NCBI GenBank assembly: GCA_965178125.1
Contig: OZ237736.1
Location: 744,001-808,000 of the forward strand
Length of the DNA: 64,000 nucleotides
Direction of reading: 5' to 3'
DNA from: Bilabrum cf. latius
Lineage: Eukaryota
Positions 13,030 to 56,922 of the stretch are shown here, piece by piece (the stretch's first letter is position 1; every line of letters begins with the position of its first letter). The notes under the pieces are model-generated. The model saw nothing but the letters and a program-made list of their open reading frames with translations, ran no database searches and was not told where the DNA came from. Made by a program: the position numbers and the translations under genes.

Positions 13030-13153
13030 CGTGATGTAGGCGCAAGTGTCAGCGGGTGAATCAAGCTGAACGCTAAAGCGGAACTAGCCGGCGTCCTTGC
13101 GCGGCGCCGTCTCGTCTATCTCGATCCGTTGCAGACAGTCAACAGCAGGAGGT

Positions 13154-17979: not shown

Positions 17980-20895
17980 ATGGCTGCGTCTGTGGGCCTT
18001 GCTTGCCTGCTTCATGCTGTCTATGCTCACACTTCATCGTTAGATGGCAGTGACTGGGTTGCTACCGGCGTTTCGAGCGACTGGAAGTCTCCCGTGGTCT
18101 TGCCTGCCACCGTTCCCGGCGAGATTCTTTCGGACCTACAGCGTGCAAACTTGATTGGTGACCCGTACTACGAATTGAATTTCTTGAATGCGAGCTTATG
18201 GGATCCTAGCGTAGCGTCGTGGTCGTTCTAGAAAGACTTTTTGAGTCCTGTGGATCGGTCAGGTTCATATCTCCTCGTCTTTGATGGGGTAAAGATGGGG
18301 GCAGTCGTAGAGCTCAACGACCAGTACCTCGGAAATACATCGGACTAGTTCTTACGGTACACGTGGGACGTGACCGACCACCTTGCGCCTAACGGTGGTG
18401 CGAACAAACTACGGTTGACTTTTGGTAGTGGCATCGACGAGCAGGGGCGCTTCATGCCGTGCACCGGCGGCTGGGATTGGGCCCCCATAAGCAACACAGA
18501 GATCACCAGCAAGGCCACTGGAACCGCCCGGACGTTTTCTTTGGGTATCTGGAAGAGCGTGTGGATCTAGGGCATCTCTCCCAACGACGTGTCGATCGAG
18601 CACCTCGTTCCCTCACAACGGTACCTCGGACAGTACCCAACGGCGCCGCTGGAAGATGGGAAGCACGCCGGTTTCGTTGTTCGCGTGGCTTTGCATGGAT
18701 GGGTCGGCAAAGGGGGTGCAGGTGGCCACTTCAGAGTCAGGGGTGACTGGGGGCCCACCGTCACAACCAAGAGGCTGGTGCTGCAGCAGGGGAGGTTTGA
18801 CACATCTGTTACCATGCAGGCGCCTGCGAGTGAAGTAAAGCTGTGGTGGCCTAACGGCGTGGGAGACCAGTACCTCTACAACATCACGGCGGAATGGGTG
18901 CCCGACTACACTGGCAGTGAACCACTTGGCGGATCCGATGTGCCGAGGTATGCGGCATCTGCAGCGGAGGGCGACTCTCTCACACGGCAGATTGGCTTCC
19001 GGGTTGCAGCACTCGTCACAGTCAACGACACGGATCCCGAGGTGGTCCGCGTCAATGGAACTGCCGACGGTTCCGGCACGTTTGGCATGTTTTTTCGAGT
19101 CAACGGAGCGCCCCTGTTCGCCCGTGGTGCCAACCTTGTGCCGATGGAGGAGATGGAGGGCAGGATGCATGACACTGCGGTGCGGCAGCTGGTCGACAGC
19201 TCGGCGGACGCTGGCATGAATATGATCCGCGTGTGGGGCGGAGGCATCTATCCATCGGATGCATTCTATGAGCAGTGCGACTACCGCGGCATCCTCCTGT
19301 ACCACGACCTCATGTTTGCCGGCGCTGGCCATTCAGCCATCAACGTGTCCCACACGACCCTCGTGGCTGAAGTGCAGCACCAGGTCAGGCGACTGGCGTC
19401 GCACCCGTCTATTTTGCTGTACGACGGCGCGAACGAAGTCATCGTGAACCGCACGGGACCCACTACCGTGTACGCTGACGTTGTGCTGGCCACCGTCGCT
19501 CGCGAAGACCCCTCGAGAATCCTGTGGCCTGCCTCCCCCGCCGCTGGGTGGCTGTCTGGAGTGAACCGCCTGTATGGAGCTCCCGCGGAAAACCAATCGG
19601 CACCTTTAGTGGCTCTTGTGGGCAAGCACGCGCACATCTGGGACGCGGGCAACGAGAGGCACGGGCCGTACGAGGCAGGCTACTCGACATTTGGCGCGGT
19701 ATGCAACGACCCCTGGTCGCAGGCGCTGCACTACGACCCGCAGATGCCGATGAAATCCTTGTATCCAGTCAATACGGGGGTGCAGGAGAAGTCAATCTTC
19801 ACCTCTGAGTTTGGAGTGGCTGTCATGAGCTCGTTCGAGTCGATGGCGCCGACTCTCAGTCCCAGCCACTGGTCGCTTCACGGCGGAGACGCGCCGCCTG
19901 ACAAATGCGGCGATGCGATCGTGGAGCGGCAGTGCAACGGCACGAACCCCATGGCTCAGCGCAACTGGGTCTGCGACAACATGATTTGGTCGGTCTTTGG
20001 CCCAGCACGCATCAACTCAACTGGAGGCGAGCGGAACTTCCAGGCACAGCTATACCAGTGCCTGGTGGCCCAGGCGTTGACCTTGAAGCAAAGAATAGAG
20101 GCCATGCGGGTTACCAACACGCTTGGCATGCTTGTGTGGCAGCTGAACGACATCTGGCCGACGGGTTCATGGGGAAGCCTCGAGTACGGGACTGCTTCGA
20201 ATCTCACGGTTGGCCAAGTCGTTGGCGGGCGTTGGAAGCCGGTGCACCACCTGTACGACGCTTCGCTGATGCGCGACGTGTTTGCGTCTTGCGGGATCCT
20301 TCATAACGGCACCAACGCGTGCTTCGTGCGGTCAGACCGTGCCGGTGTTGCGTTCCATGGGTCGGTCACTTTCACAACTGTCGATCTCGCAACCGGCGAG
20401 CAGCAGCCCTGGCTCGTGAGGAAGCAGATGTAGATGCCTCCCGGACCTGCGAGCATGGAATGGCTCCCCGCACCAGGCGGCCTGCTTCCCAACGGCAACA
20501 CGACCGCGCTCATAGCTGAAGTGTTGAATGAGGACGGCACAACGGTGGAATCCAACCACGTTGTATCGCTGGCACCGCCGTCAACCATGCAGCTCTCGCA
20601 CGACGTGAGCGTGCAAGCAGTTGTAGGCGCCGCTCCGGGACGAAGCGGTAGAATTCCCGTCACTGTTTCTGCGTTGGGCAAGGGTGTCGCTGCTTTCGTG
20701 ACGCTAACAACTGCAGCGCAAGGCCGCTTCTCCCGCAACACATTTCTGCTGCGGCCCCAGGCCCCCATGGAATTAGACTTCATTCCTTTCGGGGACGCTG
20801 CAGAGGCACACAGGCAACTGAATGCCTCGCTCCGAGTCGAGCATGCCGCCATGTACATGTCAAAGATGCTGGATGTAAGCGGGTCTAGATGGTGA
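17980..20895 (+). CDS. Secreted GH2 beta-mannosidase-like glycosidase
   Basis: PATVPGEILSDL, LVFDGVKM, GWDWAP, GIWKSV, LWWPNG.G.QYLY, F.RGANLVP, NMIRVWGGG, RLASHPSI, SEFG, WQLNDIWP. TAGs at 18229, 18346, 18568, 20431; ends TGA. Confidence 0.92.
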
Positions 20896-32660: not shown

Positions 32661-35600
32661 TTACTTCCCGTCTCCATCAACCTTCGCATCGCCCTCCTGC
32701 GGCTTGATCGTATCCCCCAGCTCTGCCTTGCTGGTCTTGCGTAAGGAAGTGAGCAGCCTGCTGCTTGCCCTGCGCCCACCCTTTCCCCCTGACCCCTGCG
32801 GCGCGAACGATCGCCTTGCTCCCCCGCCTAAGGCGTGCAGTGGATTTCCGGCCATAACTCCAGAGCTGCCCCTTGCCCCTCCCAGGCTGGCAGCAATGGA
32901 CGCGCGGCGATCAGCGACGCTGAGACTGGCTGCAGCAGCCCCCCCGGCGCTGCCGTCCGAACGAGCGAGGTCCCGCTTCAGCGACTCGATCTGCTCCTTC
33001 ATCTCGCCAAACCGGCCGGCAAAGTCCTCCAGCTGGGGCCGTAGGCGGTTCCAAGTCTCACCATCCATGGTTTTAAGGCCCGTGATTTCCTTGATCTGGC
33101 CCACAAGCGCCTGGCCTCCTGCCTCCGAGTTGCGACCCTGTTGGGAGGAAAAGGCAGGGTTGCTCTGATGCTGCATGCCACTTGTATCGATCTCTACCTC
33201 CTCTACTACGCCAGGTGCACCAGGAGCAGATGAGCCGCCCATCTTGCTCTTTTTCTTGGCCGCCTTCTGGATTAGGGCAGCCTTGCGGTCCTGAGCGTCA
33301 GTGACTAGCACGTAGACCTCGGTGAAGAGCACTGTGAAGTAGTACACCATGGACACGATGATGACTAGCATCAGCAGGATGGTCAGAGCGTCCCGCTGGC
33401 CCTCGGCGCCCTCCTGGTCCAGCCTACCCGACTCGAGCATGATGCCGCCCAGCGTCACCATGATAGCGCAGAACAGCAGAAGCGTCTCAACTGTGTTCCA
33501 GTTCATCAACGAGTTGCCAAGCACCCCAATGCTCGTGCCCAGCCCGCCAATGGCAGTCTGCTTTGCCTGTCCGCCACCGGCGGAAGCGCTCAGCATAGTG
33601 GTACCGAACCTTCGTTTGTCCCTCTTGTCGAGGGAGGTGATCACCTCCTGGATCTTGAACCACAGCTCGCCGTGCACGTCTCGCGAGGTCACGGCCCGGC
33701 CGGCAGAGTCACGGATCACAGAGCCGGCGGCGCTCGAACTGGCCGCCCCGGCCTGGCCGCTCCTCGTCTTGGCGGCCTGCTCGATGTCCTTGACCGCCAA
33801 ACGGTTGGGGGTGCGCGCGTCCTTTGCGCTAGAGTCCAGTGCGCTCTGGGCCCAGCTAGTGATAACCTCGGCGTAGTCGGCTGGTGGCATGTACGGGTTG
33901 AAGCGCACCTGGGCCGTGTAGCACAGGAACAGCACCATGTTCACGGCAGCCATCTGGAAGGACGCGTTGGTGTTGAAGAACAGCGAGCAAAAGGCAATGA
34001 GGGCCTTGCGCGCCAGAATCGTCACGATCCACCAGTAGTACTCGGGCTTGAAGTAATAGTATAGACGCTGGAAGCGCTGCCTGAACTGGCACGCATCCTG
34101 CACCTCCTTGGGCCAGTCGATGTTGATGTCGTTGCCCTTGCCGATCGACCTCATCAGCTGGTCCAGCAGCATGGTCTTGCGGCTCGTAACCAGCATGAAG
34201 CCCACCCACGCGGGGAAACCGATCGTGTACACGCCCAGCGCGATGATGGCAAAAGGAAGGAGGGTCAGCTGCACGCCGCCCTTCTTGCCGCACGGCTCAA
34301 ACACGGCCTGCATGTATAGCTGGCCGTCAGGTGGACTGGTGGGGATGCAGTTGAACACGTCCAGGATAGACCGCGTGGTGACAAGGTAGAGGAAGAGCGA
34401 CAGCACGATGGCACCTGCCACGAGGGGCGCCAGCTCATCTTTCTTCTTGTTCTTGGGCTGCTTGCAGCGGCCGCTCTTGGCACACACGTAGATCATGCCC
34501 AACACGTACATGAGCACTACCATGATCATGGCGGCCACGGGCAGCAAAATGATAAAGAACCACTTGGTCATGTACTGCAATTCTGGGATTGAGCATTCCG
34601 GGGCCGTGATCTCAAGGTTGAGGTTGAAGGCGGACAGGATGTGGAACATGTCCTTGAGCAACTAGGGCCACTGTACGCGGGCATTGGCGAAGATGGCCAG
34701 CACCTGAAAGTAGTCCACGCCGATGGCAATCAGCGCAATGTTGATCTTGGACTGGTTCAGCCAGAATCCGAAGCCGCACGCCCCGACGGCCACCACGGCA
34801 AATGCAATGACGAGGATCCAAGGGTTGTCGGGGCACTTGGCGCACTCACCCGCACGCCGGTAGAAGCCATCTGCGCAGCTGCTGCACCTGTACATGGGCG
34901 CCTTACTAGCGTATCCCACGGCGCAGAAGTTGTCGCCCACGCAGGCCCACTGCGGCTCGCAGGCCACCACACACACATCTCTGGTTGGCACCTGCCTCCT
35001 CGCGGGGCACTCAGCGTCGGTCCTGTTGCCGCTCAGGCTGTCGGACGAGTTGAGGTTGTAGAAGCCCTACTGGGGGCGAGGAGGGGTGCTCTTGCGTATG
35101 TCAGTGTCGTAGCCCTGGCAGTCGGCGCCCTCGGGGCATGGCAGACAGTGCTCCCCCTCGAGGCCGAACTGCCCAGGAGCGCACACAAAGTGCACGCCGC
35201 TGACACCCGCGCGTGCCTGGAGCTGCCCCTACTGTCCTGCGATGTTGAGTGTCACGTTCTTGTACCCCACGGTCAGTGCCTCGATCTCGCACTCGACCTA
35301 CGTGGAGGCAGGATCCTCGTTCGGATCGTCAGTGACTGCCTGCCGGCCACGGGACGTCTCCAAGCAGGTGACGCCTCCGATGCGGGCCTCTACGACCCGC
35401 TCAGCCTCGCTCCAGTTCTGCCTGATGGCAAGGTTCGGGTTACCAAAGTTCCTGCCGAAGAGGTAGACCATCTTGGTAGGACCCTGCAGCGCCTCCCGTT
35501 GCTGCATCGTGGTGGCTTCGTCGCGCAGAGCGACCAGGGCGTCTCCCCATGCCATTCCTCCCGAGTTGATGTACTCGGATAGAGGCTTGTTGGACTCCTG

Positions 35601-38600
35601 CAGCAGCTGCATGCCGGTAGCTCTGCTGGCCATCATTCGCTGCTCCACAGCCAGGAGAGCCCCCCTGTACTGCTCCAGCTCGCCCTCTGACTCGAGATAC
35701 ACCCTCGTGGGATCCGTTCGGTCGATGGTAGGCTCGTCGTAACCAAACACCCCTCGAGCCTCTGCCCGTTGAATCCCCGAGAAGCCCACTGCGCCGGATG
35801 AAACCCGTTCTTCGGCCACGGCGGCGTCGATGACTTCCACTGCCACGTCCCTCGATGCTCCGATGCCCGACGGCAAGCGGAAGGTCACAAAATCATGGTC
35901 TCTGTCCACAAGCTCGTACTGGCACCCGCTGGTGCGACCCGTCTGGGGACGGATGCCCCCAATGCTCGTGGCATCAGTGATGCAAGACATGTAGAACTCG
36001 AGCACCAGGTAGGACGTGGGAAGGGAGGCTGCCTGGGACAGGGGGACGGGGCTCACTAGGAGACCGTTGGCGAGCTCAAGAGCCTGCCCGCGCGCCGTGG
36101 TGTTGCGCTGCTTGGGCCCAAAGTTTGCGCCATGCAGAGTGACTTCATATCCGCCCACCGTGGGGCCATTACTGGGAACAACGGACCGGGTACTACGGAT
36201 CGTGGGAGGCGCGTACAGCAGCCGGGGCTGCTCAGGCTCTGTGGCCGGCGTGAGCATCTTCCCTCCGACAGAGACCTGGATGTCCTTCTGGCCCGCACCC
36301 TCAGGCAGCTCGAACGTGATGCGATCGTGCGTGTGCGCAATCACAGCGGCCTCAGGCACCTCCCCCTCTCCGGGGAAGCTCTCCATGCCATCGCAATTCA
36401 GCTCAAGGGTTGGGTTTCGGGTTGTGTGAGCGAGGAAGACGCACAGTTGAGGGTTACCCACGGCGCCCCTGCGGCCCAGATTCGCCCCAAACACGCTCAG
36501 GTAAGAAACAGCCGGGTGATCGGGACTCATGGTACGAGGCCTCGCGCCCCTCGTGGGAGCACCTTCGATCTGCAGGCCGGCGGGACCAAGCGCACCGCCC
36601 TCGGTGGATGCGTACTACACCGCGGGGCCGATGTGTTCCCTAAGGGTGGCATTGGGGACCTGCGTCGCAATGTCGGGGTCTGCCCACACGGCTGAGGACT
36701 GGAGAAGGCCCGTGGGGTCCGCTTCCTCCGCCGACGTCTCTGGCTCCGAAGCGCCCAGTGCCATCTGGAAGGCTGGAGAGAAGCCGTGGAGCGCCACTCC
36801 GGTCACCACGGGGAAATCGTACGTTACCATTGCATCTGCTTCGCCCATGAGACCCGCGGTCGTAACACGAACGGCCACGTTGGAACCTGCGCCCTCTGGC
36901 AGCGTGCACTCGATCGTCTCATGCGTCCTGCGGTCCGCCCCCTCGCACTCGACCCACTCCACATCCCTACCGAAGGCCTCGACCGCCCCTGGGTCGTTGC
37001 TCGGCAGGGCAAACTCCACCTTGATGAAGCCGGAAATAGCGTCTGCCTGCGCCTGCCGCAAGGGTGGAGTCTCTCCAAAGTTCATGCCTGTGACCAGCAT
37101 CGTCACTCCGCCCGCAGTGGGCACCGAGTCGGTCTGCTGCGCAGGCCCCACGGTGGTGATGCTGGGCCTGATGTGGGAGTAATGGAGCTGCGACCGCATC
37201 ACGTCGGCCAGGCGTACGGCGGATGAACCATCCCCGGGACGCCTGGGGATGATGCCGTTTGCCCCGTCCGTGACGCCGGCGGCCTCCACGTCTTCGAGGT
37301 CCTCGGCCAGCAGCATGGACTGCCCGCCCGCCTCGACGTCCAGCACGAAGCCTGTCGACGTGTCATTGTACTGCAAGCCGTCTCCTTCTCCCGCCGGGAT
37401 AGGGAAGATGAAGCACTCGTGGAGTGACGGCGCCTGCCCACCGGCAGTGGCAGCGGGGCAAGGGCGTCTGTTGGCGCTTACGGCGTTGGGAGGATGCCCA
37501 TAGTCTAGCACACCATCCGTGCACGTTGCTACAGAGCCGTCTCCAAGCCGCACCAGGGGACACCGTGTGAGGTCTTGGCCCCTGATTCGCATCCACCCGC
37601 CGCGTGTGGGCACCCGTACATCCTTAGCGTCATCCGCCACCCAATGCCTCTGCCAGTGGGACTCCACTGGGCTGGCGTCGGTGGGCTGGTCACCGGAAGA
37701 TCCACTGGGCGGCATCCACACGTCCACAGCGGCCACATAGGGCTTCGCGTAGGCAAACATCTCATCACCGCTGGAGAGGGACCCGGACCGATCCACAAAG
37801 ATTCGGATGTCGTCCATGGGCGCAGGGGAGGCAGGAGATTCGGGAACCAGGAAGGACACGTCGTACACGGGAGTCGTGCCGGCCTGGTTGGCGGCGGCGT
37901 CGATCACGTCGATTACATGGGTCTATATGTCCGCCCCTGTGGCGGTGTCCTGCAGCCATATGCTGTCACGGAGTGACCACACGCGACATGCCACAGCCGA
38001 CGTGGCGCTGGGCCCAGCCAGCACCCGCATCTGCTTGGAAGTCTCGAGGCCGCCCACCCGGATGGTGATGCCGTTGCCCTCCGATGGTGACCCGTCCTCG
38101 GCCTTCTGGCCCTGTGTGGGCAGTCCGGTGGTCGCTCCCTGCAGTGCCGCGATCTGGGGGGCGAGCAGCTGCCAAGTCTGCGAGTTGGCCCGCTGCACGA
38201 GCTCGTCTGCCTGCACGTCCAATGCACTCGTCATATCCTCGTCCAGCAGGGTGGCAGGCATGCGGGCGGTCACCTGCACCTGCACCTCGCCCGTCTGCTC
38301 GTCTGTGTAGGCGAGGATGCGGTTGTGCGTATGTGAGCGCACCGTCAGGGGATACCTGAGCAGCGGCAGCATGGACACGTCGGCTCGCAGTACGCCTCGC
38401 GCATCGCCCTCTTGCCTGAAGGCCCGGGGGTCCGAGAACCCGGTTCCGATAATGAGCACCTGCAGCACGCTGTTGTCGTCACACGAGAAGGGATCACCGG
38501 CACTGAACGAGCAATTCTGCTCCTCTGACGTGTCTGCGTTGACCACGTAGCCAGGTTGCGTCCAGGCGGGGCGGGTCACCACTAGCCGCTCGATTACCGG

Positions 38601-41600
38601 AGCAGCATAGGAGAAGATGGTTCCAGGGTCCATTAGTCGCGATAGTGACCCATCGTACGGTGCAGAGGTAGAGGAGTCTTCGCTGACAGGTGCAAGACCC
38701 ACTCGTACTGGGATCGCAAATCCACCGCCATGCTCAGGCAGTGTGAATGAGATGGTCTGCGAGATACCGTCCTGGTTCAGCACCATGCCGGTGGGCTAGC
38801 GCACCTGTCCTCCAAACACAACGACTGGTCTCGAGAGGCGGTCCCTCAGGGGCACATTCCTCGTGGTAAGCTTGACAATCTGAGGAGAATTGATCGGTGA
38901 ATGGGTATCCACTGTGGACACAGTATCCATACTGATCACCTCGGGCGTTGCGAAGTCGAACGTTGCGTCGGCTGTTGCAGGGGGATCGCCACTGCTGGAC
39001 TGCCCTGCCACGGTGGTCCTGAAGTAAGCATTCTCGGCCCAGCCCGGCTCGGTCTCGATCTCAATCAGGGTGTGGGACACATGATTCACGGACACGGGCG
39101 TGTACTCTGTACCCGTGGGGCCATACGTGATGCTCTGCAGACCTGGAGACTCCTCGCCCGTGTCTTCGTCAAACAGCACCAGGTCTGGAGATCCGAATCC
39201 TGTACCGTGAATTTCGAAGGTTTCACCTCCGTCCACGTCGGCATCGTCCACACGGTCACCTGCGACACCACCAGGCCGCACGATTGCGATGATCTCAGGA
39301 ACCTCGTAGTTGGTCGTGGGGCTGCGGCTGGGCTGTGAGTCCACCACAACCGTCCATGCTAGCGCACTGCCTGCACCCTCGGCCGTTTTGCACTCAATCG
39401 TCACATGCGCCTCCACCAGCACGCAATCTAGAGCCTGGAATACTGTCATGCCAGCACCGGCAACAGATAGCTCATACGTGGCGTTCAAAGGAGTCTGAAG
39501 ACCGCTGGTCTGTGGCATGGGCCCAAAATTGTTGCCCTTCAGCACCACCACCTGTCCGCCTGGAGTCAGAGCATTTGCAGCGCCCTCCCCCTCGAATGAG
39601 GCCAGCACTGGCTGCGCGTAGGCATGCGTCGTTTGCACCGCCGCAGCGACCGTGGCCTGGGTTGCAATTGCCACGTCAAACTCAAGCCCCCTGCCCGTGC
39701 CCGGCAGGGTGCTGCACTCAATCTCCGTGTCCGCCCTTGAGACACGGCACGTGGCCGTAGCATCGTACCGAAGGTTTCCGGCCGCTGCAGGCCCGTAGAT
39801 TACGGAGGAAACGCTGCCCAAGTTGCTTAGTTCGATTGGACCAAAGCCAGTGCCAACCAGTGTGAAAGACTGCCCACCACGCGTGTCTGACCCGTCGGCT
39901 CCGCGGACACTCGTCAGTACTGGCGGGGCAAACGACACGAAGGCTACCGTATTGTTCTGGCATACAACACTTCTGTCGAGCTCATCGATCCCCAGCGACC
40001 CATCATCCACCTGCTGGGCGAAGCAAGTATCCTCGACCTGTGACTGCCCATTCACCACAGCCGAGGCCACTAGTCCCCTACCCACACCGGCCGGCATGGT
40101 GCAGTGGAGCAGCTTGTGGGCCATGGCACCAGTTTCCGGCTTGGTGCACTGGGTCATCTCATACTCGTATCCCGCAAGTTCTAGGCCCATAGAGCTGACT
40201 GGGCTGTCAGGGCTGTAGCTGAGCTTGACGCGGACTGGCTCCGTGGCGGGCCCGAAGTTTACACCCCTGACCACCACGATCTCCCCTCCGGTGGTGCGAA
40301 GGTTTGTGATGTCTAGCGAGGACGTGATACCCTCCAGCCCGGTGATCTGGGGAATCGCGTACGTGAACGTGCTTACATCCATGATACTAGCGTCACCCGC
40401 ACCGCCACTTGCGGCATCTGTGCCCGAGGACCGAGACCGGATGGTCAGATCGTCCTCCCCATTGATTGACAGCATCCACTGCAGGTCGCTGCCAGAGCCC
40501 TCGGATGTCACGCAGCGTACCGTATCATGACTAGTCTCCCCTGCTTGCAGCAGGGTATCGTCCACTCGGCAAGGAAGCTAGCCGCCCCGACCGTCGCTGT
40601 AAAACACGGTCTGCACACCAGTGGGTCCCAAATTCTCGCCCTTCAGGACTACCTGTGTGCCTCCCTCGGTAGCTAGAGACATTGCACTGTCGCTCACTTC
40701 TGTCACAGTGGGGGTTTTGTAGCTCAGCTGGAGCCTTGATGTCAGAAGTGCACCTTGCCCCTGTGCGTTCACGTGCACGTCAAAGCCCAAGCCAAAACCC
40801 TCCGAGGTCGTGCACGTGATCTCCGTGGCTTCGACGGTCACAGAGCACCCAGTCATGTCCACGCGTTGTTCTCCCCCGGCTGGGTTAACACGAGTCATCC
40901 ACGCTTCGACAGGCGTGACCTGGCCCGGCGATCCGAGACCGGTGCCAGTAAAGACGCACGACTGCCCTCCGGCCGTCTGAATGCCCTCTGCGTCTGTGCC
41001 GCAAGCCACCTCTCGGATGATTGGAATGTTTGAGTCGTTGGCCTGAATGGCAAAACGAACATCCTAAGTGTCGATGGCACCGTACCTGTCTCTGACCTCG
41101 ACCTCAACAATGTACTCGGCCCGCACCAGCATGCCCTGAGTGGCTGCATCCAGGGACAGGTAGGGGGAGTAGTCGGAGGTAATAGACCAGTCGGGGCTGG
41201 GCACGGCAATGACAGAGACATTTCCCTGTCTCGCATCGATCGCAATAAGGTCGACGTTACCCTCCTGCAGCACCTGGTTCGCTGAAGTCTGAGGGCTCCC
41301 ATCGCTTCTCCGCTGTCGCACTACGGTGCCCCTGAGCGGGTCGGTGCCCTGCGCTCCCTTGCTGGTGAACCGATACATCAAGTCGCTCAGGAACTCTTCG
41401 CTGTCCTGGTCGGCTGCCTAAACACTGGGAGTCATGCGAGCCCCGATCTGAGCGTCGCGAAGCGCCACCACCTCGTCGATCACAATGACCTGGGCCTATG
41501 GCAGGCCGCTTTCAGCGTTCCCTGCAGCCAGCTCGGGGGCATCGTTTGTATCGTTCAGGCGAAGAGTGATGAAGCTCGATGCGGTATTTCCCACGATGTC

Positions 41601-44600
41601 CTCCACCCGCACGATGGTCAAGTAGCCACCCGATGCGGGGGAGGTCTCGTAGTCAACGGGGTGACCGCTGCCGGACGGCCTGGCTGGGGCCGAGAAATTT
41701 AGGGAAAGCTACCCCGTAGTCTCGTCCAGCAGAACCATGCCGTCCGTGCTGTCAAACTCGACGCTAAAGGTCAGGGTATCATCCTCCGGGTCCTCTGCCA
41801 GGGTAGACAGAGCTACACCGACGGTGGTCCCGACGGCGCAGTTCTCCTCGACCGTGAAGGTCTGTGCAGCAAGCACGGGCGGCTCATTCACGTCCAGCAC
41901 CGTCACCGTGACGTTGACCTCGGTAAAGGCGCTGTACCCGTTAATGCCGATCTTAACTGTCAGGTTGAAGTACTGCTTGGTTTCATAGTCCAGCTGCGTC
42001 TGGTCGTTCACCCGGATCAATCCGTCGCACAGCCCGATCTTGAAGGCCTCTCCGTCGTCCCCTGCCACAATGGAGAACTCCATCTGCTCGTCGGCCTCGA
42101 GCGACGCAGACACGGGCTCGCCCACTGCCGTATTCCTCGCAGAATTCTCGTGAACCTCACGAGCTTGGTTCTTTGCCACTGGAGGGCGGATGCCGCAGCC
42201 GGGGGCACCATCCGGTTGGTTTAGGGTGCCATCAGCCTTGCAGGAGGACACATCGGCACCAGATGCCGTGAATCCCTGCCTGCACTTGAAGGCGCACGTG
42301 TCTTGGTAGTACATGTCCCTGCACCCGCTGACCGTGGGTCCCCCTCCCACGAGACAAGGCGTCTCCAGCTTCAGGTTGTCGAACTCGGCCGGGCCCTCCG
42401 CCCATAGCCCAACGTCACCAGAGGTCAGAGTGGGATCTCTAGCCGTCATGATCCGGCCGCCATCCAGCCAGACCTCAATGTCGGCCCCGTCCAGCATCAC
42501 CTTGAGCTCGTGCCGCTCAGTCGGCTTGGACGAGTCCAGCTTGCGAATGCCTACGCCTGATGATGCTAGCATGGCGTCGGATCCAACCTCACCAGACCTC
42601 TTGACGATCTTGTGCACACCAGAGGCAAAACCGATCGACGCGATAAAGTACACGCTACCACTGGCGGCACGGAAGATCAGGCCGGCGTCTCTTTCCCCGC
42701 TCAGCTCAATGCTAACCGAGTGGGCCACGTCAAGCGTCCTCGGGTCGGGGTCTCGCAGCAACACGGCCACGCCTTGGCCCTCGACGAGACACGTGTCGTC
42801 CACTGGAGGCGGCATTGATATCATCCTGCCATCAACTACCTGCCAGTAGTCTTCGAGCGGAAAATCGTCCGGATCCGCGGAAATGAACCTCTTCTGGGCT
42901 AGAGAGGAGTCTTCGAAATCTTCCGCTGCGACAGCTTGCGTGCAAGATTCTGCGCCTGCGGGGGCTGGAATTGCTGGGCACTGCGCGGCGCACTCAAGTT
43001 CCTCGGTGCTCCACTGCCCATTGATGCAAGTGGCCTCCGTTTCTCCAGAGATGGACGTGTACCCCGCCAAGCACGACAGCTTGCACTCGTCGCCTTGCAA
43101 GGCCCCTGTACACGTCCCAATCTGAACCGTGTTGGGCGGCGCACGGTCCTCGCACTTGATGTCACTGTACACGAGCACCTCGCACAGCTCAAGGAAAGTA
43201 GTCCTGGGCTCCGACACGACCAGTACGTACCGTCCGGTTGCATCGCACTTGAGGTCGTTAATGATGCCGCGATCCGATGTGATGAATCCCCTGCACTTGG
43301 TGTTGCGTTCCCAGTTGGAGGCATCGTCTCCCACATACACCTCGGCACCTCGGATCCGATCAGGCCACCCAGTACGAGTGTATACTCGGATCGTGTCCAC
43401 AAGGTACCTCTGCTGGAGATCGATACGCATCCGAGGCCGGTAGGACTATGCGCTGTGGTAGCAATTCGGGCCCATCCCTCCGTTGTTGTGCACTCCATCC
43501 ACCGCTCTATTTGAACCCAAGCCGTCGTACACCCCGCCCCAGTAGTCAGTCGGCTTGCCCCGCGCCACGTTGATGAGCCGGGACAGGTCTGGCGTGATCG
43601 AAGGCCTTACCTTGTTGCTCAAGGCAGACCACTGGCCTCGCCCTGCCTATGTGACGGCAGCTGCCTGGAATGAGTAGGTTGCATCAGTAGTCAGCTACGT
43701 GACCTGTGCACGCAGTTTGCCGGTTGGTGTTCCAGTGGGACGCAGCGTCGCCAGCTTTGCCATTCGAGAAGCACCGCTGTTGGCGCAGCCGTCCGTCGTG
43801 ACCTTGATGTCGTCGATGAAGTACGTCTTGGTCGTCGTGTCCCACGACTTTCCGTGCAGTGCAAGCTTGCCCTGGCTCACATCTCCCCCTCTGTTGAGGT
43901 CCGCAAGCTTGAGGGACCCCAGGGTCAGCCAGTCGGGGTCCAGCCTTCCCTTGTGAAAGAATGAAATGGTGTTTGTAGCGACATTGTAAGCCATCTTGAG
44001 CCATTGAAGCTGTGCGTTTGTCCCCATCCCGAGGTTTTTAGCGAATAGACCCGATCCGCTCCTGCTGGCTTGCACCCTATAGTTGTTTCCGTCTTGTCGG
44101 TAGAAAAGGATGTCAACTCTAAAGCGGTTGTAGTCCTGCTTACGTGCATCGCCCTCCTGCAGCGTGATGCCGACGCCACCACGGATGGGCTGCGGCGAGT
44201 CCACCCATGCCTTCATCTGCACCTCCCAGTTGGCACCTGCGTGCAGCTTTTCGCCAGTCCCTGTCTGCTCGATCGACTTTGGCCACGGAATAAAGATCTT
44301 GGAACAGTCGTTGGCATCGTTCCAGCAGTCCTGTCTGGAGCCAAGCACCCATTTCAGGTATCCCTTGCTGCCCGACTTGTCTGCCCCCTGTTCGAACGCA
44401 ATGGTGTGGCTGGGGCGTGCTCGAAAGGACCACCCCCCGGGCAGACTAGTCATGCCGCCGCCAAAGTCGGTGCCACCGAAGGAGGATGGCGCGGCGCGAA
44501 TGGCGTAGTGGGTAGCCTCATCGTACGTGCCAAGGTCGTCTTCTGCGACGGGGGTCCACGTGATAGTGGCCGTCCTGCCGCTGATGGTTGCTGTCACGTC

Positions 44601-47098
44601 TGTGGGAGCGATGGCGGTTTGCGCCTGGCACACGGGGACGTATCCTGAGTAGTAGCCTGTGATCTCGCACGTCACTGGCAATCCACCTACTGGGTTTGTC
44701 ACCGTGTAGCCGTTGCTGCAGCTGTAGTAGCATGAACCGCGGAAGCAGTTGCTCGTAGAGACACCAGTGGTAGTGAGATCGTCGCATCCTGGGAGCTGGA
44801 TTACGTATGAGCCCTCAACCGCAGCGGTTAGCGATGAAATGCCAGAGCGTCCTCCTAGGAGGACAAGAGCTCCGTTCCCGGCCGGTGCGAGCGAAGCCCA
44901 AGCCCTGCCGGCTGGCGAGCTGCCGATCACTCGGAGTGCAGAGCTAAACTGGTAGCTCAGCAGGTCAAGCGCATGCAGGTCATCCAGCGCCTCCCCGTCT
45001 GCCCCTATCCCGCCGTAGATCCAGGCCATGCCGCGGTGTTGCGTGGCTGCGTGCCCGAACCTTGGGCTGGGCAGGTTGCGGACAGGCATCCCAAAGACCT
45101 TGGCTTCGCAGATGGCAAGCGTGTGGCCCACCCTTGGCTGCACGATCCAGACGTAACGACCAGTCTTGGTGCACATGATGGTGTCAACGTTGCCAAGGGG
45201 GCTGGGCACGTTGCCCTCGCACTCGGTGTTGAGGTCAAACTTGTCGGGGTTGTCACCTACCCATAGCTCGATATCGGTGGATCGACTCCTGCAGCAGCCA
45301 TCACTACGGTCCCACAGCTGGATCCTGGTCAGATCGTACGAGGCCCCCAGGTCAATTCTTATGTAGTGATGAGTGCCTGTGTGAGTACCGGAATGGATGC
45401 ATGAACTCCCACGCCACTCCTGGTCCGTGTTCCCGTCGTTAATTCTCGTTGCCACGCCGCCGTAGCCTTGCTCAGTGGCTTCAACACCCTTGCCCTGCGC
45501 CAGCTCCTTCTCGTCGGTGCTCAGTGTCTTCCACTTCCAAGGCTCGGGGCCCATGACCATGAGCTCGCAGCCGTCCAGTCGCTTGCCTGTTCCAGACAAA
45601 AAGGCGTGAACGTACCTGCCGACTGCTCCATCGCACGGGATGGTCGCAGGCACTGGGAGCCTTCCGTTGTATGGCGACTCGCACTCGGTGAAGGAGGGAG
45701 TTCCCTGACCGTCAAGGGGATCTGTTCGGTGGTTGTTAACGGTAATACGAAGCCCGTTGGCGCTGTCGCGTTGCGCAGTCTCCGTCCGTGGGTAGAAGCG
45801 GACCTCTTTGACGGTGCGGGGCCCGCCAAGATCTACCGAGGCGCCCGAGTTCGCCGCGGAGGCGCTCTGGACCATGCACTGCCCATTACCCGCCACAGTG
45901 TTCAAGAGGCCATCCACCAGGTTGGAGGTGTGGAAATTAGCATTGCCGTTCCGTGGTTTTGGGGCATACACGGGCCTGTTGAGCGCGAGGTTCACCAGCG
46001 AGCCCTCGTCCTCGAACCCAACGGAGCTGAGTGCCCACAGGTGGTTCGTCGCATCCTTGGCGTCGTCTCCCGTGCGGCCACCGAACATGACCGCGACGCG
46101 ACCCGTGGGATCAGCGGTCAGCGTGTGGTCGTACCTCCCCGTGGGTGCGCCGCCCTGAGCCGCTGCCGGTGCCTCCCACTTCACGGCACCTGTCGTGGGC
46201 AGCTGCATCACGGCCGTAGTTGCATGCACGACATCGGTACCTCCGCGGCCTCCGTGCACCACGAGACACTCCTCGCCAGCGGCCTCGCAGTCGCGCAGAA
46301 CCACTGCCGCTGCAAACCGTCGCGGCGTCGTCAGCGCAGTCGGTGCCAGCTTGGTCCACACTTTCGTGCCTGCGAGGGGTTGCAATGGAAAGGGTCTTTC
46401 GGTGCTTTATACGTTAATTTGAAAGAGGCGCACATGATTTCGCTGCGCTCTTGCGGTCGGATGGATCGCCGCAACACGTGACAGTAGTGCCGCACCACGT
46501 GACGGTCGGATGGATCGCCGCAACACGTGGTGGGTGAAACTAGAATATCTTTCCTTACCCAAATCGAATTTAAACGTTCCTCGCTGAGACTATCCTGTGC
46601 TTCCCATTCCCCCGTAAGCGTACACCACATCCTTGGAGGCGGCGTAGGCCGGGCCCTCGCTTACGGGAGCAGTGCCTGAGGTCGTGGGGAGTGAGGCCGC
46701 CCCATCTGCGAATTGGGGCGAATTTAAGAGAGGTTGCGCGAGAGCGTTCGGTCCAATGAACGAAAGGCAAAAATAACGCACACTTGACGAGTGCGATCTA
46801 CTTGTACTGGAGCAGGGACGGCATGGAACCGTCATACGTGTATTGGCAGGAGTCGGGCGGGTGTCGTTGTAAGTGCAACTGATGCCTCACCGGCGTCCAC
46901 AGCCACAAAATCCTTTCCTCCCGATGCCACCTTGCCTCCGAGGAAGAATGCAGTGTCATCTGACGCGGCTGCCCCTGCACCACTCCGCAATTTGGGCGTT
47001 GAACCCGCTGCTGAAAGCTCGACGAAGCGGATGTCAGCAGCTGCGGCACTGTGGCTCCCTACGAGAGCAGCCACAGCGGCTGCAAGCAAGGAGATCAT
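32661..47098 (-). CDS. Giant (~4,690 aa) multidomain surface/membrane protein, 3 exons (introns 46706-46890, 46370-46558)
   Basis: Signal peptide; Kelch-like repeats; F5/8C-fucolectin-like domains (NLALNRP, IRIDLG, LAICEAKV); sushi-like; FN3; cadherin repeats (LDYETK, DVNEPP); many IPT/TIG repeats (G.NFGP); Cys-rich region; multi-TM C-terminus. Sixteen in-frame TAGs; ends TAA. Confidence 0.85.
46454..46529. repeat. Intronic 27-bp perfect direct repeat (46454-46480 and 46503-46529)
   Basis: CGGTCGGATGGATCGCCGCAACACGTG twice, with a partial copy CCGCACCACGTG between them. Confidence 0.9.
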
Positions 47099-51776: not shown

Positions 51777-54700
51777 ATGCACCGTGCTCACGAATCGTGG
51801 AGACACTGGTCGAAGTGGAAAGACGCAGAGATTCGTACAAGCCACCTTTTGAATCGTCCGAATGACAACCCACTATGTTGGTTGTAGCTTGCAGGCCAGC
51901 CCATAGTTGGATAGTTGGAACGCATTCCAGGTGGTGGCTCTGGCGTCAGTGTCATCGGGGAAAGTTGCATGGGATCTGCATGCCCAGTGCAGTTCGATTT
52001 GGATTTACCTCACACTGACAGCCCGTCAATGAGAATATGGGAAACGCTTAAGCCAGTTTTACCAGCCGTTTCAAGCACGGGTAGGGTTGCTTTTGAGCGC
52101 TCTGGTCACCTGGTTACCTTGGACTTGCGCAAAGCGTCCAAGGCGGACCTTGCTCCGGACGCAGGGCCAGCTGCCCGATCCCGGCAGCTACAGACAGTTT
52201 CGTCCATTAAGCTCAAGTAGCCTCTGTAGCAGTATAATGTGGCTCAAGCAAGCGTCTCCTCTTTTGCAGCTTGGTCAAGGGACGAAATGGTTTGGGTTTC
52301 CCATTATGGCGTGTTGCAGTTGGTCGATTGCCGCGCCGGCAAGCCGCAAATGGTAGTTGGGGCAATGGGCGACTCCTTCATTGCCAGAGCATGTGGCATG
52401 GCTTGTTTGTCAGGCGGACATGCCGGCAGTGGGGGCCCTTGGGATCCGATTGTCATGGCAGCAGCCCACGTCAAGAGCGAGCAAGATGCCGCTCGCCCGC
52501 AAGGACAGCACCAGCCTGAAGGGCAGGCACAGGAAGCTGAAGATGTCCAGGCCGGTACCATGCGGCTATTTGACATTCGGGGCAAGGGGGCGTCCTACAC
52601 GCAGATCCTGCCGCCGCCGCTGCCCCGCGAGTTCCGCAGCGCCTACGGCAAAGCTTGTGCTGGAGTCTCGAACCGCGGAGGACTTGGCACTCCAAGTGCG
52701 GCCTCGAGCAGCTCTAGTATTGCAACCGGTCCGATGGCTGCAACCACCGGCAGCGCGTAGGACGAGAGCAGGGCCGAGCAACTCCTCACCAGCCTGCAGG
52801 CGCACAGCCAGCTTTCCTCTCACCTGAGCTACCAGCTCACAGGGTGCGACACGGGTGCCGCGATTGGGCTCGCGTATCCTCGAAGATCGTGCGTTGTCAC
52901 GGCAAGCGAGCTCAGGACCGCGATACAGCATGCCTCTGTGATCCCTGTCGGAAAGGCGTTTGAGGACGACGACGTGGCGGTGCAGTTGGTGGGCGATCCA
53001 GTGCCTTGTGACCCTTTCGGTGCGATGCAGGGAAAGCGTTTCCCATCTAACGACCATGACTCCGGGTCAAACACACCGGCTACCCTGTCGGTAGGTGGGA
53101 TAGCTCGTTCCGGTACCAGCGATAGCGCCAGCCGGCAGGTTTCAGTGCCTTCTTTACCCGCTAGCTCACCCTGTGCGGGCGAGGCTGAGGGCGATTCGGC
53201 GACGATCGACAAGCGCGGAATCTCTTGCTAGAGCGATAGTGAGAGTGATAGCGACGGCATAGACGAAGAAGACAGCCTCCTCCGCGTGCCCATGCTGGTG
53301 CGAGCCACTCGGTCACAGGGTCGTCATATGTCGCTGCTCAACCCCGAGCTCTCTCACGACGGGCGTATTCTTGCCCTGTGCGCGGATGGAGTGGGCGTGC
53401 TTGTGGTAGACAGCGGCACGATGAGAGTGCTGGCAGAGTATTCACCCGCGCTGGAGGGGACGAGCCGTGCGGCAAGCAAACCTCTACGGTCAGAGGTACC
53501 TCGGCTGTCCTAGTTGGCAGACTACCAACACCGCACTGGCTTGGCAGTGATGCGGTCGGGGCTGTTGCCGCGGGACGCAGACGGGGCACAGGCACTGTGG
53601 AGCCTGCAGAAAACGTCTTCAAGAGTAGTTTTCCCACCGAGAGGGCTTGCGCGAGCGTGCCCTGCCGACGTGCTCGGGGCACTGGTGTATCGCAACTGCG
53701 CAATGGTGCTGCGGTGGCAGCCGCGTCTGGCACCAATGTTGAAGCAGCTGAGAGCAACACCGCATGCTATCACCAGTACGAAGCGAACAACAAGCGGCGC
53801 AGCTGCTCCACTACGAGCACCTAGAGCAGATTCAAGGCATAGCAAATTATTGGGGCTAAAACGAACGAGAGAGTGCATCGGCAGCAGCAGGGCCAAACCA
53901 ACTCGAATCGGCCGTGTGTCCAGCTCTGGCGAGGGGCGCCACGTGCACCTCCTGCCCTCCCCGGAAAAGCACGAGGCTGAATACACGTCTGCAGAGTTGG
54001 TCGGGCTGCAGAACACGGGGTGGAACTAGGACCCGCAGGACCTCACCCCGTTCGACTGCTCGTACCACAGGGGAGCATGCGACTAGATGGTGTACGTGTG
54101 CATCACTTGCATGCACAACAAGCAGGCGGCTCTGGTCGACCCAGTTGCGGAGACTGGGGATGACCTCCAGGCGCGCGTTGGCAGGGAGGTGTGGGTCGCA
54201 GACCCAGTCTACACCGATACGGCGAGGCAGGCCATCCAGACTGCATGGAGGCGAAGTGACGGCTCCTGCAGAATGATGAGCCCGGCTGCTTCGCGTCGCA
54301 TACGAACGGCCGTACAGCTGGACTGCTTGCTGGCCAGCGGATCAATCGTCCCGGGTGCCTCTCACGTAGCGCCAGCTTCTGACAGCGGACTTCGGGCCAG
54401 CCGCTCTCGTGACATAGGCCCCTGTGAACGCTCCATACGAATGGTGGAGAACGATGTGCAAATTCAGCGCGAGTGTACCGAATTGGGCGACCCTGGAGCG
54501 TTCGTGAAGCGCATTGCAAGCATGCCTGAAGAGAGCAGCGGGACCTTGAAGGCAGGCATCGTTCCGTTTGGCGTGTGCATCTCGTGCGCCATGAATTGCC
54601 ACGCGCGGAAAGGTCACGAAATCATCGAATGCCAGGCCTCCATGTTCCCGACAGAGCTCGGCGTAGTGAAAATGTTCCGTTGCGATTGCGGTACTGCACG

Positions 54701-56120
54701 TTCGGGCTGCTCCTGCTTGATTAAAGACCCTGACAGCGGCCACATCGGGTCTTTCAACGAGGAAAACAACTCACTGTACAACTAGAACTTCTTTCTGCAG
54801 TGGTGCTACTGCGGCCAGCCCATGCGCGATGGAGTGGGCATGGTGCAGTGCGCGAGGTGCTCTGACTGGTTCCACGACTCGTGCCTCATGCAGGGCGCGG
54901 GTGGATCGGGCAAGCGCCGTGAGAGTGGTAGCGAGGCAGGGGCACCGGTTGCAGCCTCTGACACGACCGGCAGCAGCCCCATCAGCAGCAGTAGCAGTAG
55001 CAGCTCTCATGGCGTGTATCGCGGACCAGCCCAAGCCTAGCATAGCATGTCTATCAGGTTGCCCGGTGGAGCAGCACGCCCCACATCTCTCGCTGCGGCA
55101 CTCCAGCAAGAAGGCAGGTACGCCGACATGGTAGACCGGCTAGACTTTGTGTGCAACGACTGCCTGCATGCAAAGCTCTCGGTGCCTGGGGCGAGTGCCC
55201 TGGGTCTCTGCATGGGATCTCGACGGTCCTCCGGCCGCTACGGAGGTGGAGCAGACAGCCGGGGTCAACGACCCGCTGCCTCTGCAACAGGTGGAGCAGA
55301 CAGCCGGGGTCAACGACCCGCTGCTTCTGCAACAGGTGGAGCAGACAGCCGGGGTCAACGACCCGCTGCCTCTGCAACAGGTGGAGCAGACAGCCGGGGT
55401 CAACGACCCGCTGCCTCTGCAACAGGTGGAGCAGACAGCCGGGGTCAACGACCCGCTGCCTCTGCAACGCCTGCTCCTCCCGACGACGGCGGCGACTGCA
55501 TCAGGGTTTTTTGTGACGACGGCTCGGGTGTTCACTTTATTGTGTTCCCCGGCGGAGTGCTGACGTCCACGAAGGGCCAGCTGGAGAACCTGATTGGTTC
55601 GAGCACCGAAGCAAGCGCTTCAGCCGGGCAGGGGAGTGCCCAAGCGGCTGCAGGCTTCTTGTAGGCTGCCAGGGACTTGCTGGGAGCATTGGGCGATCCA
55701 CAGCGATCGTTCCGCGGGCATGATTCCATTCGAGACGGGCAGATGGCGGTGTGGAGTCGAGAGTGCAGCGCGCTGCTAGCAGACGGCACGTCAGCTGGGA
55801 TGAGCGCGAGGGGGCACGCTGGGCACTTGGCGGGAAGCGAGGCCGAGGGCGGTGATGATGAAGATGACAACGATGATGATCCCAGCGATTCCCTCTTGCG
55901 GTAGCTCCAGAGCCGCTTACTTGGCAGCCTTGAAGGAGGCGAGGCAAGTGGGGCAGATGGCGACGGCGACGGGTCTGGGCTCGGATCGGCTGTCGGTGAT
56001 GCGGGCCATGGCTCGGGCGCTGGGCCACCTAGTGGTGGCGAGGGGATTGTTGCATTAGCTGGGATCATTGATGGGGTGATTCGAGACCTGGATGAGGGCG
56101 ATGGTGACGGGTCTGGGTGA
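51777..56120 (+). CDS. 1,447-aa protein with unrecognised N-terminal half and UBR7-like UBR-box plus PHD-like finger
   Basis: Continuous frame with 13 TAGs and no TAA/TGA. CSYHRGACD*MVYVCITC, GVCISCAMNCH..HE, FRCDCG, YN*NF..WCYC..P, MVQCARCSDWFHDSC, FVCNDC. Confidence 0.78.
55245..55469 (+). repeat. 45-bp minisatellite x5 encoding GGADSRGQRPAASAT
   Basis: Units at 55245, 55290, 55335, 55380, 55425; nearly identical; no spacers. Confidence 0.97.
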
Positions 56121-56245: not shown

Positions 56246-56922
56246 ATGGCATCTGCAGACCGCAGGGAAGACGTGGAGAAGTCGGAGCCCGCACCGGCAG
56301 AGCCTGGACAGCTTGACGAAACTGATGAACGGTTTCTTGACACGCTTGGTATCCGGCCGATCGAGAACACCCCGATCGAAGACGTGGGCTACGACTACTA
56401 TTGGGATGGCCAGGGCGAAGACCAGGAAGCGGGGGTAGGGCGAGTGGTGTACGACAACTCGCGATGGGCAGGAATCAAGGTTGTGCAAGGCCTGGAATTT
56501 GTCGGGCAAATTGCCGCCCACGTGCTAGGGCTTGATCAGTCCTAGTATTAGCACGTCGTAGACTCGGCTCGAAGGGAACGGGTGAGCAGTTTCCTTGCTC
56601 GGAGACGCGGCGCCTTGTTTGTTCGTCCGGTTGCACCACTCCTTTCCACCCCGATTCACTCGCTTTCGTCCGATCGCAGGATGAAATAGCGAGAAGAATA
56701 CTAATTGAAAAGCAAAGGGAAATGCTGTTGCGTGACCGTGAAGCAGCTATTCGAATGTCTAGGGAGCAAGCAAGGAAGCAGGTAGCAGAATCCAAGGAGT
56801 CCTCTAGTCCGGCAGACGATGCGGAATCCAAGGGCGAACCCGACCTAGAGAGCGGTATTGGGAAAATGGATCCACAGTCAAGTGGCGGTGCCGCGGCAGC
56901 TGCTGGAGGTGGAACGAGCTGA
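56246..56922 (+). CDS. FAM177-like small protein, 2 exons (intron 56582-56679)
   Basis: LEFVGQIAAHVLGLDQS*Y*HVVD resembles the FAM177 core (GE..A..FGI...KYQY..D). GTGAG...GCAG intron in phase; ends TGA. Confidence 0.65.

Follow-up and report, generated by a model that had tools for sequence, protein, structure and literature searches.

Introduction

A nuclear code in which UAG alone is read as glutamine is rare and of a kind already described. In the fornicate Iotanema spirale, UAG encodes Gln and UAA is a stop (PMC5304391, PMC9161772); according to the accessible parts of these reports, the assignment was derived from conserved alignment columns and a likelihood comparison among 20 amino acids, UAA is the dominant stop, and a change in the GTS motif of eRF1 is reported. 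A table-15-type code is given for the ciliates Protocruzia tuzeti, Hartmannula sinica and Trochilia petrani, in which UAG encodes Gln, UAA and UGA are stops, and UAG is distributed along gene bodies in the manner of a synonymous Gln codon (PMC11687900, as far as its accessible text describes them). Far commoner is the reassignment of both UAG and UAA to Gln (UAR = Gln, table 6), which excerpts of two papers list for many ciliates, Ulvophyceae, Hexamita, Streblomastix and Amoeboaphelidium protococcarum (PMC11687900, PMC6299283). For UAG, the meaning Leu is given in the rhizarian exLh as well as ciliate MAGs, and Ser in Scotinosphaera (PMC5304391, PMC11687900, in the portions available). Codes that separate UAG from UAA are rare, and need discrimination between the two codons by both a tRNA and a release factor. 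A literature search covering the available portions of main texts found a UAG-only Gln code outside ciliates just for Iotanema.

We analysed a 64,000-nucleotide stretch of nuclear DNA (hereafter the window), which is about 60% GC, gene-dense and intron-poor. On the reading we favor, and which we consider very probable, UAG encodes Gln, UGA (mostly) and UAA are stops, and the source is a GC-rich, gene-dense, intron-poor ciliated eukaryote. A close counterpart is Iotanema, where, as on this reading of the window, UAG alone has passed to Gln and UAA terminates, the assignment resting in both on conserved columns and amino acid likelihoods; the dominant stop is UGA here, and the window, at its GC content, carries BBS5 and a cGMP-dependent protein kinase (PKG) with multiple cNMP domains. 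The three ciliates have in common with the window the spread of UAG along gene bodies, but in the accessible data UAA ends 93.5–100% of their aligned genes, whereas UGA ends 12 of 15 genes in the window; in our judgement this DNA, with 60% GC, a gene-dense 64-kb contig and a 13.5-kb gene, is not ciliate-like. The UAR = Gln codes likewise turn a nuclear stop codon into glutamine, but the window has TAA as sense in 0 of 17,209 codons, at odds with the published account of Amoeboaphelidium, where TAG and TAA both encode Gln, as far as its available text goes. Amoebophrya sp. ex Karlodinium has all three stops in frame, unlike the window. The UAG = Leu and UAG = Ser codes also uncouple UAG from UAA but differ in the amino acid, Leu and Ser being rejected here.

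Results and discussion

In-frame TAG codons throughout the window

The longest open reading frame in the window measures 903 aa with the standard code. It grows to 4581 aa once TAG is taken as a sense codon, as compared to 964 or 1081 aa if TAA or TGA is read as sense instead. Frame 0 of 16 ORFs (17,209 codons) contained 101 TAG, whereas TAA and TGA were both absent; the off-frames (+1 and +2) of the same ORFs held 134 and 112 TAG, 50 and 53 TAA, and 303 and 328 TGA. The zero for TAA and TGA in gene bodies follows in part from how the ORFs were drawn and applies to the window. TAG was present across almost all genes, at least nine of which have Pfam domains flanking TAGs on both sides, and as a share of Gln codons (about 13%) it is a minor one. 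The in-frame TAGs named in a preliminary description of this DNA were all located, at 54027, 54084 and 54783 in the plus-strand ORF 51777–56120 and at 18346, 56543 and 56549 (plus strand), with those at 41709 and 7060 appearing as CTA, as they belong to minus-strand genes; every peptide string quoted there was found as well.

Contigs from several runs were identical in sequence to the window. Spliced contigs from two runs (presumed to be RNA, none recorded as such) covered TAG-bearing genes with 0 differences, indicating that the TAGs are retained in apparent transcripts. In the PKG gene (9231..13323, minus strand; Pfam), which has four TAGs in its main exon, a 112-nt GT..AG intron (12318–12429) matches a spliced contig joint, 12317 to 12430; the best PDB matches, Plasmodium PKG at 382.8 bits and PKG1 of human at 374.8, score alike and carry no taxonomic signal. 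The BBS5 gene (13222..14283, plus strand; PF07289, E = 8e-134), which has no TAG, contains a 92-nt GT..AG intron (13228–13319) whose joint, 13227 to 13320, occurs in two runs. An ESM Atlas search upheld the identity of BBS5 and returned no taxon; the presence of this gene marks the source as a ciliated eukaryote.

These data bear on the alternative that the TAGs are true stops located in pseudogenes, at assembly errors or at sites of rare read-through. It has the standard code as the default expectation in its favor and nothing else; against it, TAG is the only one of the three codons in frame and hits almost all genes, the frames are open in five independent relatives with TAGs at partly different sites, and the same sequence recurs across runs. 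We consider it exceedingly improbable, and take the TAGs as sense codons in what follows.

A focal TAG on a nearly invariant glutamine

The UBR-box and PHD gene (51777..56120, plus strand) is an ORF of 1447 aa with 13 in-frame TAGs and a TGA end. The first half of its UBR-type zinc finger (CSYHRGACD-TAG-MVYVCITC; 54057..54110) aligns to the homologue consensus CTY..GYi.Q.VYaClTC and was found in 93 of the best 150 homologues. At the column of the focal TAG (residue 770; 54084..54086), these 93 aligned UBR-box homologues carry Q 86 times, R 4 times, and T, I and M once each, and the homologues P0126, P0127 and P0128 all have Q at this position. An insertion of about 146 residues (54111..54548) divides the UBR box, so that most homologues match as two flanking stretches; its start is common to P0127 (43% identical). 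The second half of the UBR box together with the PHD finger (54549..54893; query 191–305) is the best-matching stretch: E ≤ 1e-3 was reached by 341 proteins, the top one at 3.9e-18, and the consensus Cys/His positions are matched.

Two further TAGs in this region are less telling. In LYN-TAG-NFF (residue 1003; 54783..54785), the pattern YN[QHD]NF proposed in the preliminary description holds, but Q is not the consensus, the commonest residue being H (H 107, Q 27, D 6, and eight other residues once each; n = 148). The TAG at residue 751 (54027..54029) falls in a variable column with mixed residues, in which only 18 homologues align. The query that retrieved the homologues of the UBR module had Q in place of each TAG; they were then re-aligned with X, so the bias toward Q in these columns is small.

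The Pfam zf-UBR model (PF02207) had no match at E ≤ 10 on the UBR module or its second half, probably because the insertion splits the box, and therefore the label "UBR7-like zinc finger" rests on homologues bearing zf-UBR: a scan of the top 20 found the domain in 18 (17 above cutoff), 10 of which have PHD too. On the focal module itself, PHD was the one Pfam domain detected at E ≤ 10 (E = 1e-4 to 1.7e-3; 20.5–22.4 bits, under the Pfam cutoff of 24), and PHD fingers were the sole PDB matches of the module (E = 5.6e-5). A word-indexed search for homologues of the UBR module returned nothing at E ≤ 1e-3, and a metagenome scan with the focal protein found no relative. The module shares with UBR7-type proteins its Cys/His pattern and probably its order (zf-UBR then PHD), differing in the length of the protein and in the insertion within the UBR box; in the best match, P0126, it is fused to WD40-like repeats. 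Together, the alignments indicate that the focal module is homologous to UBR7-type proteins, with TAG 54084 falling on a nearly invariant Gln. Reading TAG as Gln would yield a full-length focal protein whose UBR box is split, an unusual feature.

TAG columns in other genes

A second conserved column comes from the GH2 beta-mannosidase-like gene (17980..20895, plus strand; Pfam Glyco_hydro_2_N2 and Ig_mannosidase), the start of which is placed at 17980 from a contig beginning at 17974. It has four TAGs (18229, 18346, 18568 and 20431) and 399 homologues, and the column at TAG 18346 reads Q 96, M 10, E 4, C 2 and A 1 (n = 113). A 95% identical relative, P0002, has Q at TAGs 18568 and 20431.

The remaining examples offered in the preliminary description alongside GH2 carry little or no weight. 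The cadherin TAG (41709–41711) lies in a surface-protein gene (32661..46208, minus strand) encoding 4515 aa with F5/8 type C, Kelch, Sushi, cadherin-like and TIG domains and transmembrane segments, with 15 TAGs and a TAA end; the Cadherin_4 model gives 36.1 bits for Q as against 35.3 for L, too close to discriminate. In the FAM177-like gene (56246..56704, plus strand; 152 aa), with three TAGs (56543, 56549 and codon 147) and a TAA end, the PF14774 score is 23.1 bits with Q and 24.2 with K, all under the cutoff of 25 and with no specificity. The AbfB region matched at E = 0.013, and its best stretch leaves TAG 7060 outside. In a NEK kinase compared with PDB entries, the position of the TAG varies, with V in NEK1 and R in NEK7, and is uninformative. 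The sole column against Q is TAG 3865 of the GDA1/CD39 nucleoside phosphatase gene (2420..4423, minus strand; Pfam; three TAGs), where the Pfam model favors L over Q by 4.3 bits.

Residues opposite TAG in relatives

Relatives 91–96% identical to the window's proteins (Logan proteins) span three TAG positions and carry Q at every one of them. For the surface protein, this is seen at TAG residue 2762 in the relative P0124, and the fragments P0122 and P0123 stop right before TAG residues 838 and 1500. Counted over the fragments of relatives called with the standard code, two end directly before a TAG and two begin at the first Met after one. Contigs of two runs, X8 and X9, represent a syntenic relative with about 9% DNA divergence (region 9000–28999); among the 40 differences listed out of 2128, none falls in a TAG codon.

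More distant relatives were found in JGI metagenomes. Four sequences, L001–L004, have long ORFs with 7, 4, 1 and 3 in-frame TAGs, so that TAG is needed as a sense codon there too; identity to the surface protein is 71% for L001 and 69% for L002. Opposite TAG, in the comparison of the window with these four, Q stands in 18 of 38 pairs, E in 1, and L, Y and W in 0. With one observation per TAG column, Q stands in 9 of 16 and another residue in 7, a rate close to that at which L001 keeps an ordinary Q of the window (38 of 61). At several TAG columns the relatives show A, S, K or P instead.

We compared the natural-log likelihoods of the amino acids over the 16 independent columns, and Q was ahead of every other by at least 15.8 units (K −15.8, S −16.2, E −19.8 relative to Q); L was at −100 over all 38 pairs. 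The Pfam score comparison proposed in the preliminary description gave sums of 379.0 bits for Q, 377.8 for K, 372.2 for S, 372.0 for R, 371.6 for E, 364.7 for Y, 361.5 for L and below 359.6 for W. It thus disfavors Leu, Tyr and Trp, which lie 14–19 bits under Q (L by 17.5), but is indecisive on its own between Q and K, which are 1.2 bits apart. A consensus mainly of Leu, Glu, Tyr or Trp at TAG columns was absent.

The alternative that TAG is a sense codon with a meaning other than Gln (Lys, Ser, Glu or Leu, for example) could draw on this narrow Lys gap, on the CD39 column and on the A, S, K or P residues found in relatives. The two conserved columns (86 of 93 and 96 of 113), the close relatives, the log-likelihoods and the low Pfam standing of Leu all speak against it, and we regard it as highly improbable. 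TAG = Gln is backed by the conserved columns, the close relatives, the likelihoods and the Pfam scores against Leu, Tyr and Trp; these four independent lines support the assignment at the level of sequence, on stronger evidence than the preliminary description had. The comparisons with relatives show that the code is common to them and the window's organism.

UGA and UAA as stops

Among 15 complete genes, TGA ends 12 and TAA ends 3; the orthologues in relatives end in TGA, TAA and TGA, and in L003 the terminal TAA is followed immediately by TGA. The code is UAG-only, with TAA having no sense use. As UAR = Gln is much more common than the UAG-only code in the available literature (PMC5304391; PMC11687900), we considered a table 6 code in which UGA is the sole stop and TAA is rare through high GC. 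Two of the three TAA-ended genes reach TGA after just 13 and 8 codons, and are indistinguishable in this respect. However, A-ending synonyms make up 18–28% of the Gln, Lys and Glu codons, and from the CAA:CAG ratio of 140:532 in the window genes about 25 in-frame TAA would be expected if TAA encoded Gln, as compared to 0 seen beside the 101 TAG. Reading TAA as sense brings non-homologous extensions only: the FAM177-like gene gains 270 codons, overlapping its opposite-strand neighbor, and three TAA lie within 185 codons in frame upstream of the focal gene. Together with the adjoining TAA and TGA of L003, these observations make a UAR = Gln code very unlikely, and we retain UAG-only Gln.

A context-dependent dual role, in which TAG encodes Gln within genes and terminates near some 3′ ends, would be compatible with the main explanation. 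TAG lies 4, 10 and 6 codons before the stop in the DENN-domain gene, a 453-aa ORF and the FAM177-like gene, respectively; three genes with a TAG inside the last 10 codons stand against about 0.9 expected for 15 genes, and this excess suggests that some TAGs could terminate. The excess is small (Poisson probability about 0.06, by our own estimate), no gene requires a TAG stop, and such a role was judged unlikely in the examined ciliates with a UAG-only Gln code in the accessible text of PMC11687900. We therefore consider a dual role unlikely, and somewhat less so than a UAR = Gln code.

Decoding and lineage

By analogy with known cases, UAG would be decoded by a tRNA-Gln with anticodon CUA unable to read UAA, and eRF1 may no longer recognize UAG. 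tRNA and Rfam scans found no tRNA gene in the window or in L001–L004, and eRF1 is absent among the genes of the window. Genome data exist for this lineage, unlike for Iotanema, and changes in tRNA(CUA) and eRF1 underlying the separation of UAG from UAA would be directly readable.

The lineage would have at least one sister (91–96% identical) and four more distant metagenome relatives with the same code. We suggest tentatively, and with more doubt than conviction, that it is a non-ciliate, GC-rich protist lineage in which a UAG-only reassignment has yet to be published, with an independent origin of the code and only the second non-ciliate case after Iotanema. An aphelid source was considered, as one of the runs with a close relative bears the label of an algae metagenome, but the use of both TAG and TAA for Gln described for Amoeboaphelidium does not fit the TAA data of the window. 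A culturable or sequenced organism with a UAG-only code and graded relatives would offer a view of how the uncoupling of UAG from UAA arose.

Standard gene callers cut almost all genes of the organism and its relatives at TAG, and the relatives' fragments in public protein sets do stop exactly at these codons. Table 15, rather than table 1 or 6, is needed to annotate this lineage.

Reading of TAG within genes

With TAG alone taken as sense, the longest frame in the window grew from 903 aa under the standard code to 4581 aa, compared with 964 aa when TAA, and 1081 aa when TGA, was taken as sense instead. In 16 ORFs (17,209 codons), frame 0 contained 101 TAG, 0 TAA and 0 TGA codons; the two off-frames of the same ORFs held 134 and 112 TAG, 50 and 53 TAA, and 303 and 328 TGA. 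The 15 complete genes ended in TGA (12) or TAA (3), and of 770 Gln-type codons counted in 15 ORFs, 98 were TAG, 532 CAG and 140 CAA. Every TAG named in the preliminary description was found, all in frame. In three genes, a TAG (21136; 14508; codon 147 of the FAM177-like gene, 56246-56704, +) lies 4–10 codons before the TGA or TAA stop, against ~0.9 such genes expected for 15; because of this excess some TAGs may also terminate near 3' ends as a context-dependent stop, or chance may account for it.

Conserved residues at TAG positions

We then investigated the module of the focal gene (51777-56120, +; 1447 aa) that had been described as a UBR7-like zinc finger. Pfam did not detect zf-UBR on the focal protein even at E ≤ 10, giving only a sub-threshold PHD finger; a PDB search with the module returned PHD fingers and nothing else, and a word-indexed homologue search with the UBR module gave zero matches at E ≤ 1e-3. 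An exhaustive HMMER search with the UBR module retrieved 341 proteins at E ≤ 1e-3 (best 3.9e-18), and zf-UBR was present in 18 of 20 scanned homologues (17 above cutoff; 10 of them with PHD too), these being 19 hand-picked from the 27 best-ranked, plus P0127. Since these homologues carry zf-UBR and some also PHD, the focal module would, judged from sequence, be a UBR7-type UBR box with PHD, the box being split by a ~146-residue insertion; the description thus holds through the homologues, but not by direct Pfam detection.

When the best 150 of the 341 homologues were re-aligned to the query with TAGs as X, the TAG 54084 column showed Q in 86 of 93 (R 4, T 1, I 1, M 1), and the three best inspected homologues all have Q there, placing this TAG on the conserved Gln of the UBR pattern, as proposed. 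At TAG 54783 the residues of the suggested YN[QHD]NF pattern all occur, but the commonest is H (107 of 148; Q 27, D 6), and TAG 54027 falls in a column without conservation. The C-terminal part of the same protein contains five copies of a 15-residue unit, GGADSRGQRPAASAT (window 55300-55530, +), a recent in-frame tandem repeat.

In the GH2 gene (17980-20895, +), with 120 of 399 homologues aligned, the TAG 18346 column likewise supported Gln (Q 96, M 10, E 4, C 2, A 1; n = 113); the remaining three TAGs lie in variable columns, with S/T, A/V or L/V commonest. In the proposed Pfam test, domain pieces were scored with TAG read as 8 of the 20 residues. Scores (bits, for Q, L and K) were 23.1, 16.7 and 24.2 for FAM177; 92.2, 87.5 and 90.5 for Glyco_hydro_2_N2; 51.2, 49.1 and 50.9 for F5_F8_type_C_2; 19.4, 12.9 and 19.1 for fn3; 23.8, 21.7 and 24.2 for TIG; and 169.3, 173.6 and 168.9 for GDA1_CD39. 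The six-family sums (Q 379.0, K 377.8, S 372.2, R 372.0, E 371.6, Y 364.7, L 361.5, W below 359.6) speak against Leu, Tyr and Trp, but do not separate Gln from Lys. At the CD39 TAG (3863-3865, −), which comes after the nucleoside phosphatase motif ATAGLRI, Pfam favours Leu over Gln by 4.3 bits; this is the sole conserved column disagreeing with Gln.

Relatives sharing the code

Protein fragments from Logan assemblies were 91–96% identical to window proteins. Fragment P0002 spans two GH2 TAGs, with Q at both, and P0124, which covers a single TAG of the giant 4515-aa protein (32661-46208, −), has Q there. Two further TAGs are each immediately preceded by the last residue of a fragment (P0122 and P0123), and P0002 and P0124 start with the first Met downstream of a TAG. 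This coincidence of fragment ends with window TAGs shows that the relative retains TAG there and that its proteins were cut by gene calling under the standard code. Runs X8 and X9 contain a syntenic relative at ~9% DNA divergence, and none of the 40 listed differences (of 2128) falls in a TAG codon. Run X5 (window 9000-28999) yielded window-identical contigs and lower-depth contigs with letters of this relative, suggesting that its source material contains a second, related genome or haplotype.

Four JGI metagenome contigs (L001-L004) encode orthologues of the giant protein's C-terminal region (L001 71% and L002 69% identity, over 979-1448 residues), their frames being open solely with TAG as sense (7, 4, 1 and 3 TAGs). 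Opposite TAG, the 38 pairs of the five-sequence alignment gave Q 18, A 4, S 3, K 2, P 2, G 2, N 2, D 2, T 1, R 1 and E 1, with zero L, Y or W. With each TAG column contributing a single observation (Q 9, S 2, A 2, K 1, G 1, P 1 over 16 columns) and substitution frequencies drawn from the same alignment, the lnL deficit relative to Q was 15.8 for K, 16.2 for S, 19.1 for A and 19.8 for E; for L it was 100 over all 38 pairs. Gln is thus the best reading by lnL, and its share of 9/16 columns approximates ordinary Q retention between window and L001 (38/61). Downstream of its giant-gene orthologue, L001 carries a second ORF (5019-6392, +; 458 aa, 6 in-frame TAGs), of which no counterpart was found in the window, so gene order differs at such distance.

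With the conserved Q columns, the Q of close relatives and an lnL lead of at least 15.8 all agreeing with the preliminary description, we consider it very probable that TAG encodes Gln in the window. tRNA scans of the window and L001-L004 found none, and eRF1 was not among the window genes.

TAA and known codes

The A-ending share of Gln, Lys and Glu codons is 18–28%; were TAA to share the meaning of TAG, ~25 would be expected, and gene bodies contain 0, a comparison partly dependent on ORF drawing and covering 64 kb. With TAA as sense, all of the sequence gained by frames lacks homology; examples are the upstream frame of the focal gene, with three TAA in 185 codons, and 270 codons added to the FAM177-like gene, which overlap its opposite-strand neighbour. 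TAA therefore probably does not share the meaning of TAG, and a UAG-only code is likely.

In the portions of the literature covered, UAG-only Gln is described for Iotanema spirale (PMC5304391, PMC9161772), the sole such case outside ciliates in the literature searched, and for Protocruzia tuzeti and two phyllopharyngean lineages (PMC11687900); the window's code is therefore of an already known kind. The same sources give UAG = Leu in a rhizarian and ciliate MAGs and UAG = Ser in Scotinosphaera (PMC11687900), UAR = Gln in Amoeboaphelidium, Hexamita, Streblomastix, Ulvophyceae and many ciliates (PMC11687900, PMC6299283), and all three stop codons in frame in Amoebophrya sp. ex Karlodinium (PMC12005148).

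Genome character

G+C is ~60% along the whole window, long reading frames are tightly packed on both strands, and intergenic spacers are very short (e.g. 65 nt between 15837 and 15903). Pfam assigned window frames with TAG as sense to a NEK-like kinase, a GDA1/CD39 phosphatase, an arabinofuranosidase-like protein, a cGMP-dependent kinase with several cNMP-binding domains, a GH2 beta-mannosidase, a DENN protein, a DUF711 protein, the focal protein and the giant protein (F5/8 type C, Kelch, Sushi, cadherin-like and TIG domains), and another frame to BBS5 (E = 8e-134). Contig joints in two runs revealed two GT..AG introns, of 112 nt in the PKG gene (12318-12429, −) and 92 nt near the BBS5 5' end (13228-13319, +); apart from these, window genes look intron-free. 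The eukaryotic domains, including BBS5, and the two introns therefore identify the window as nuclear DNA from a cilium-bearing eukaryote poor in introns. Database matches of the BBS5 and PKG proteins carried no taxonomic signal.

Low-complexity inserts are frequent among window proteins; a 23-glycine run occupies the PKG linker (window 9234-12374, −), and a long (AG)n dipeptide run breaks up the DUF711 domain (window 27288-29075, +). The longest ATG-started GH2 frame, which begins at 17836, runs over the start of a divergently oriented 656-aa membrane-protein gene (15903-17873); the true GH2 start is probably 17980, where the protein would begin like a signal peptide and close to which, at 17974, a contig begins.
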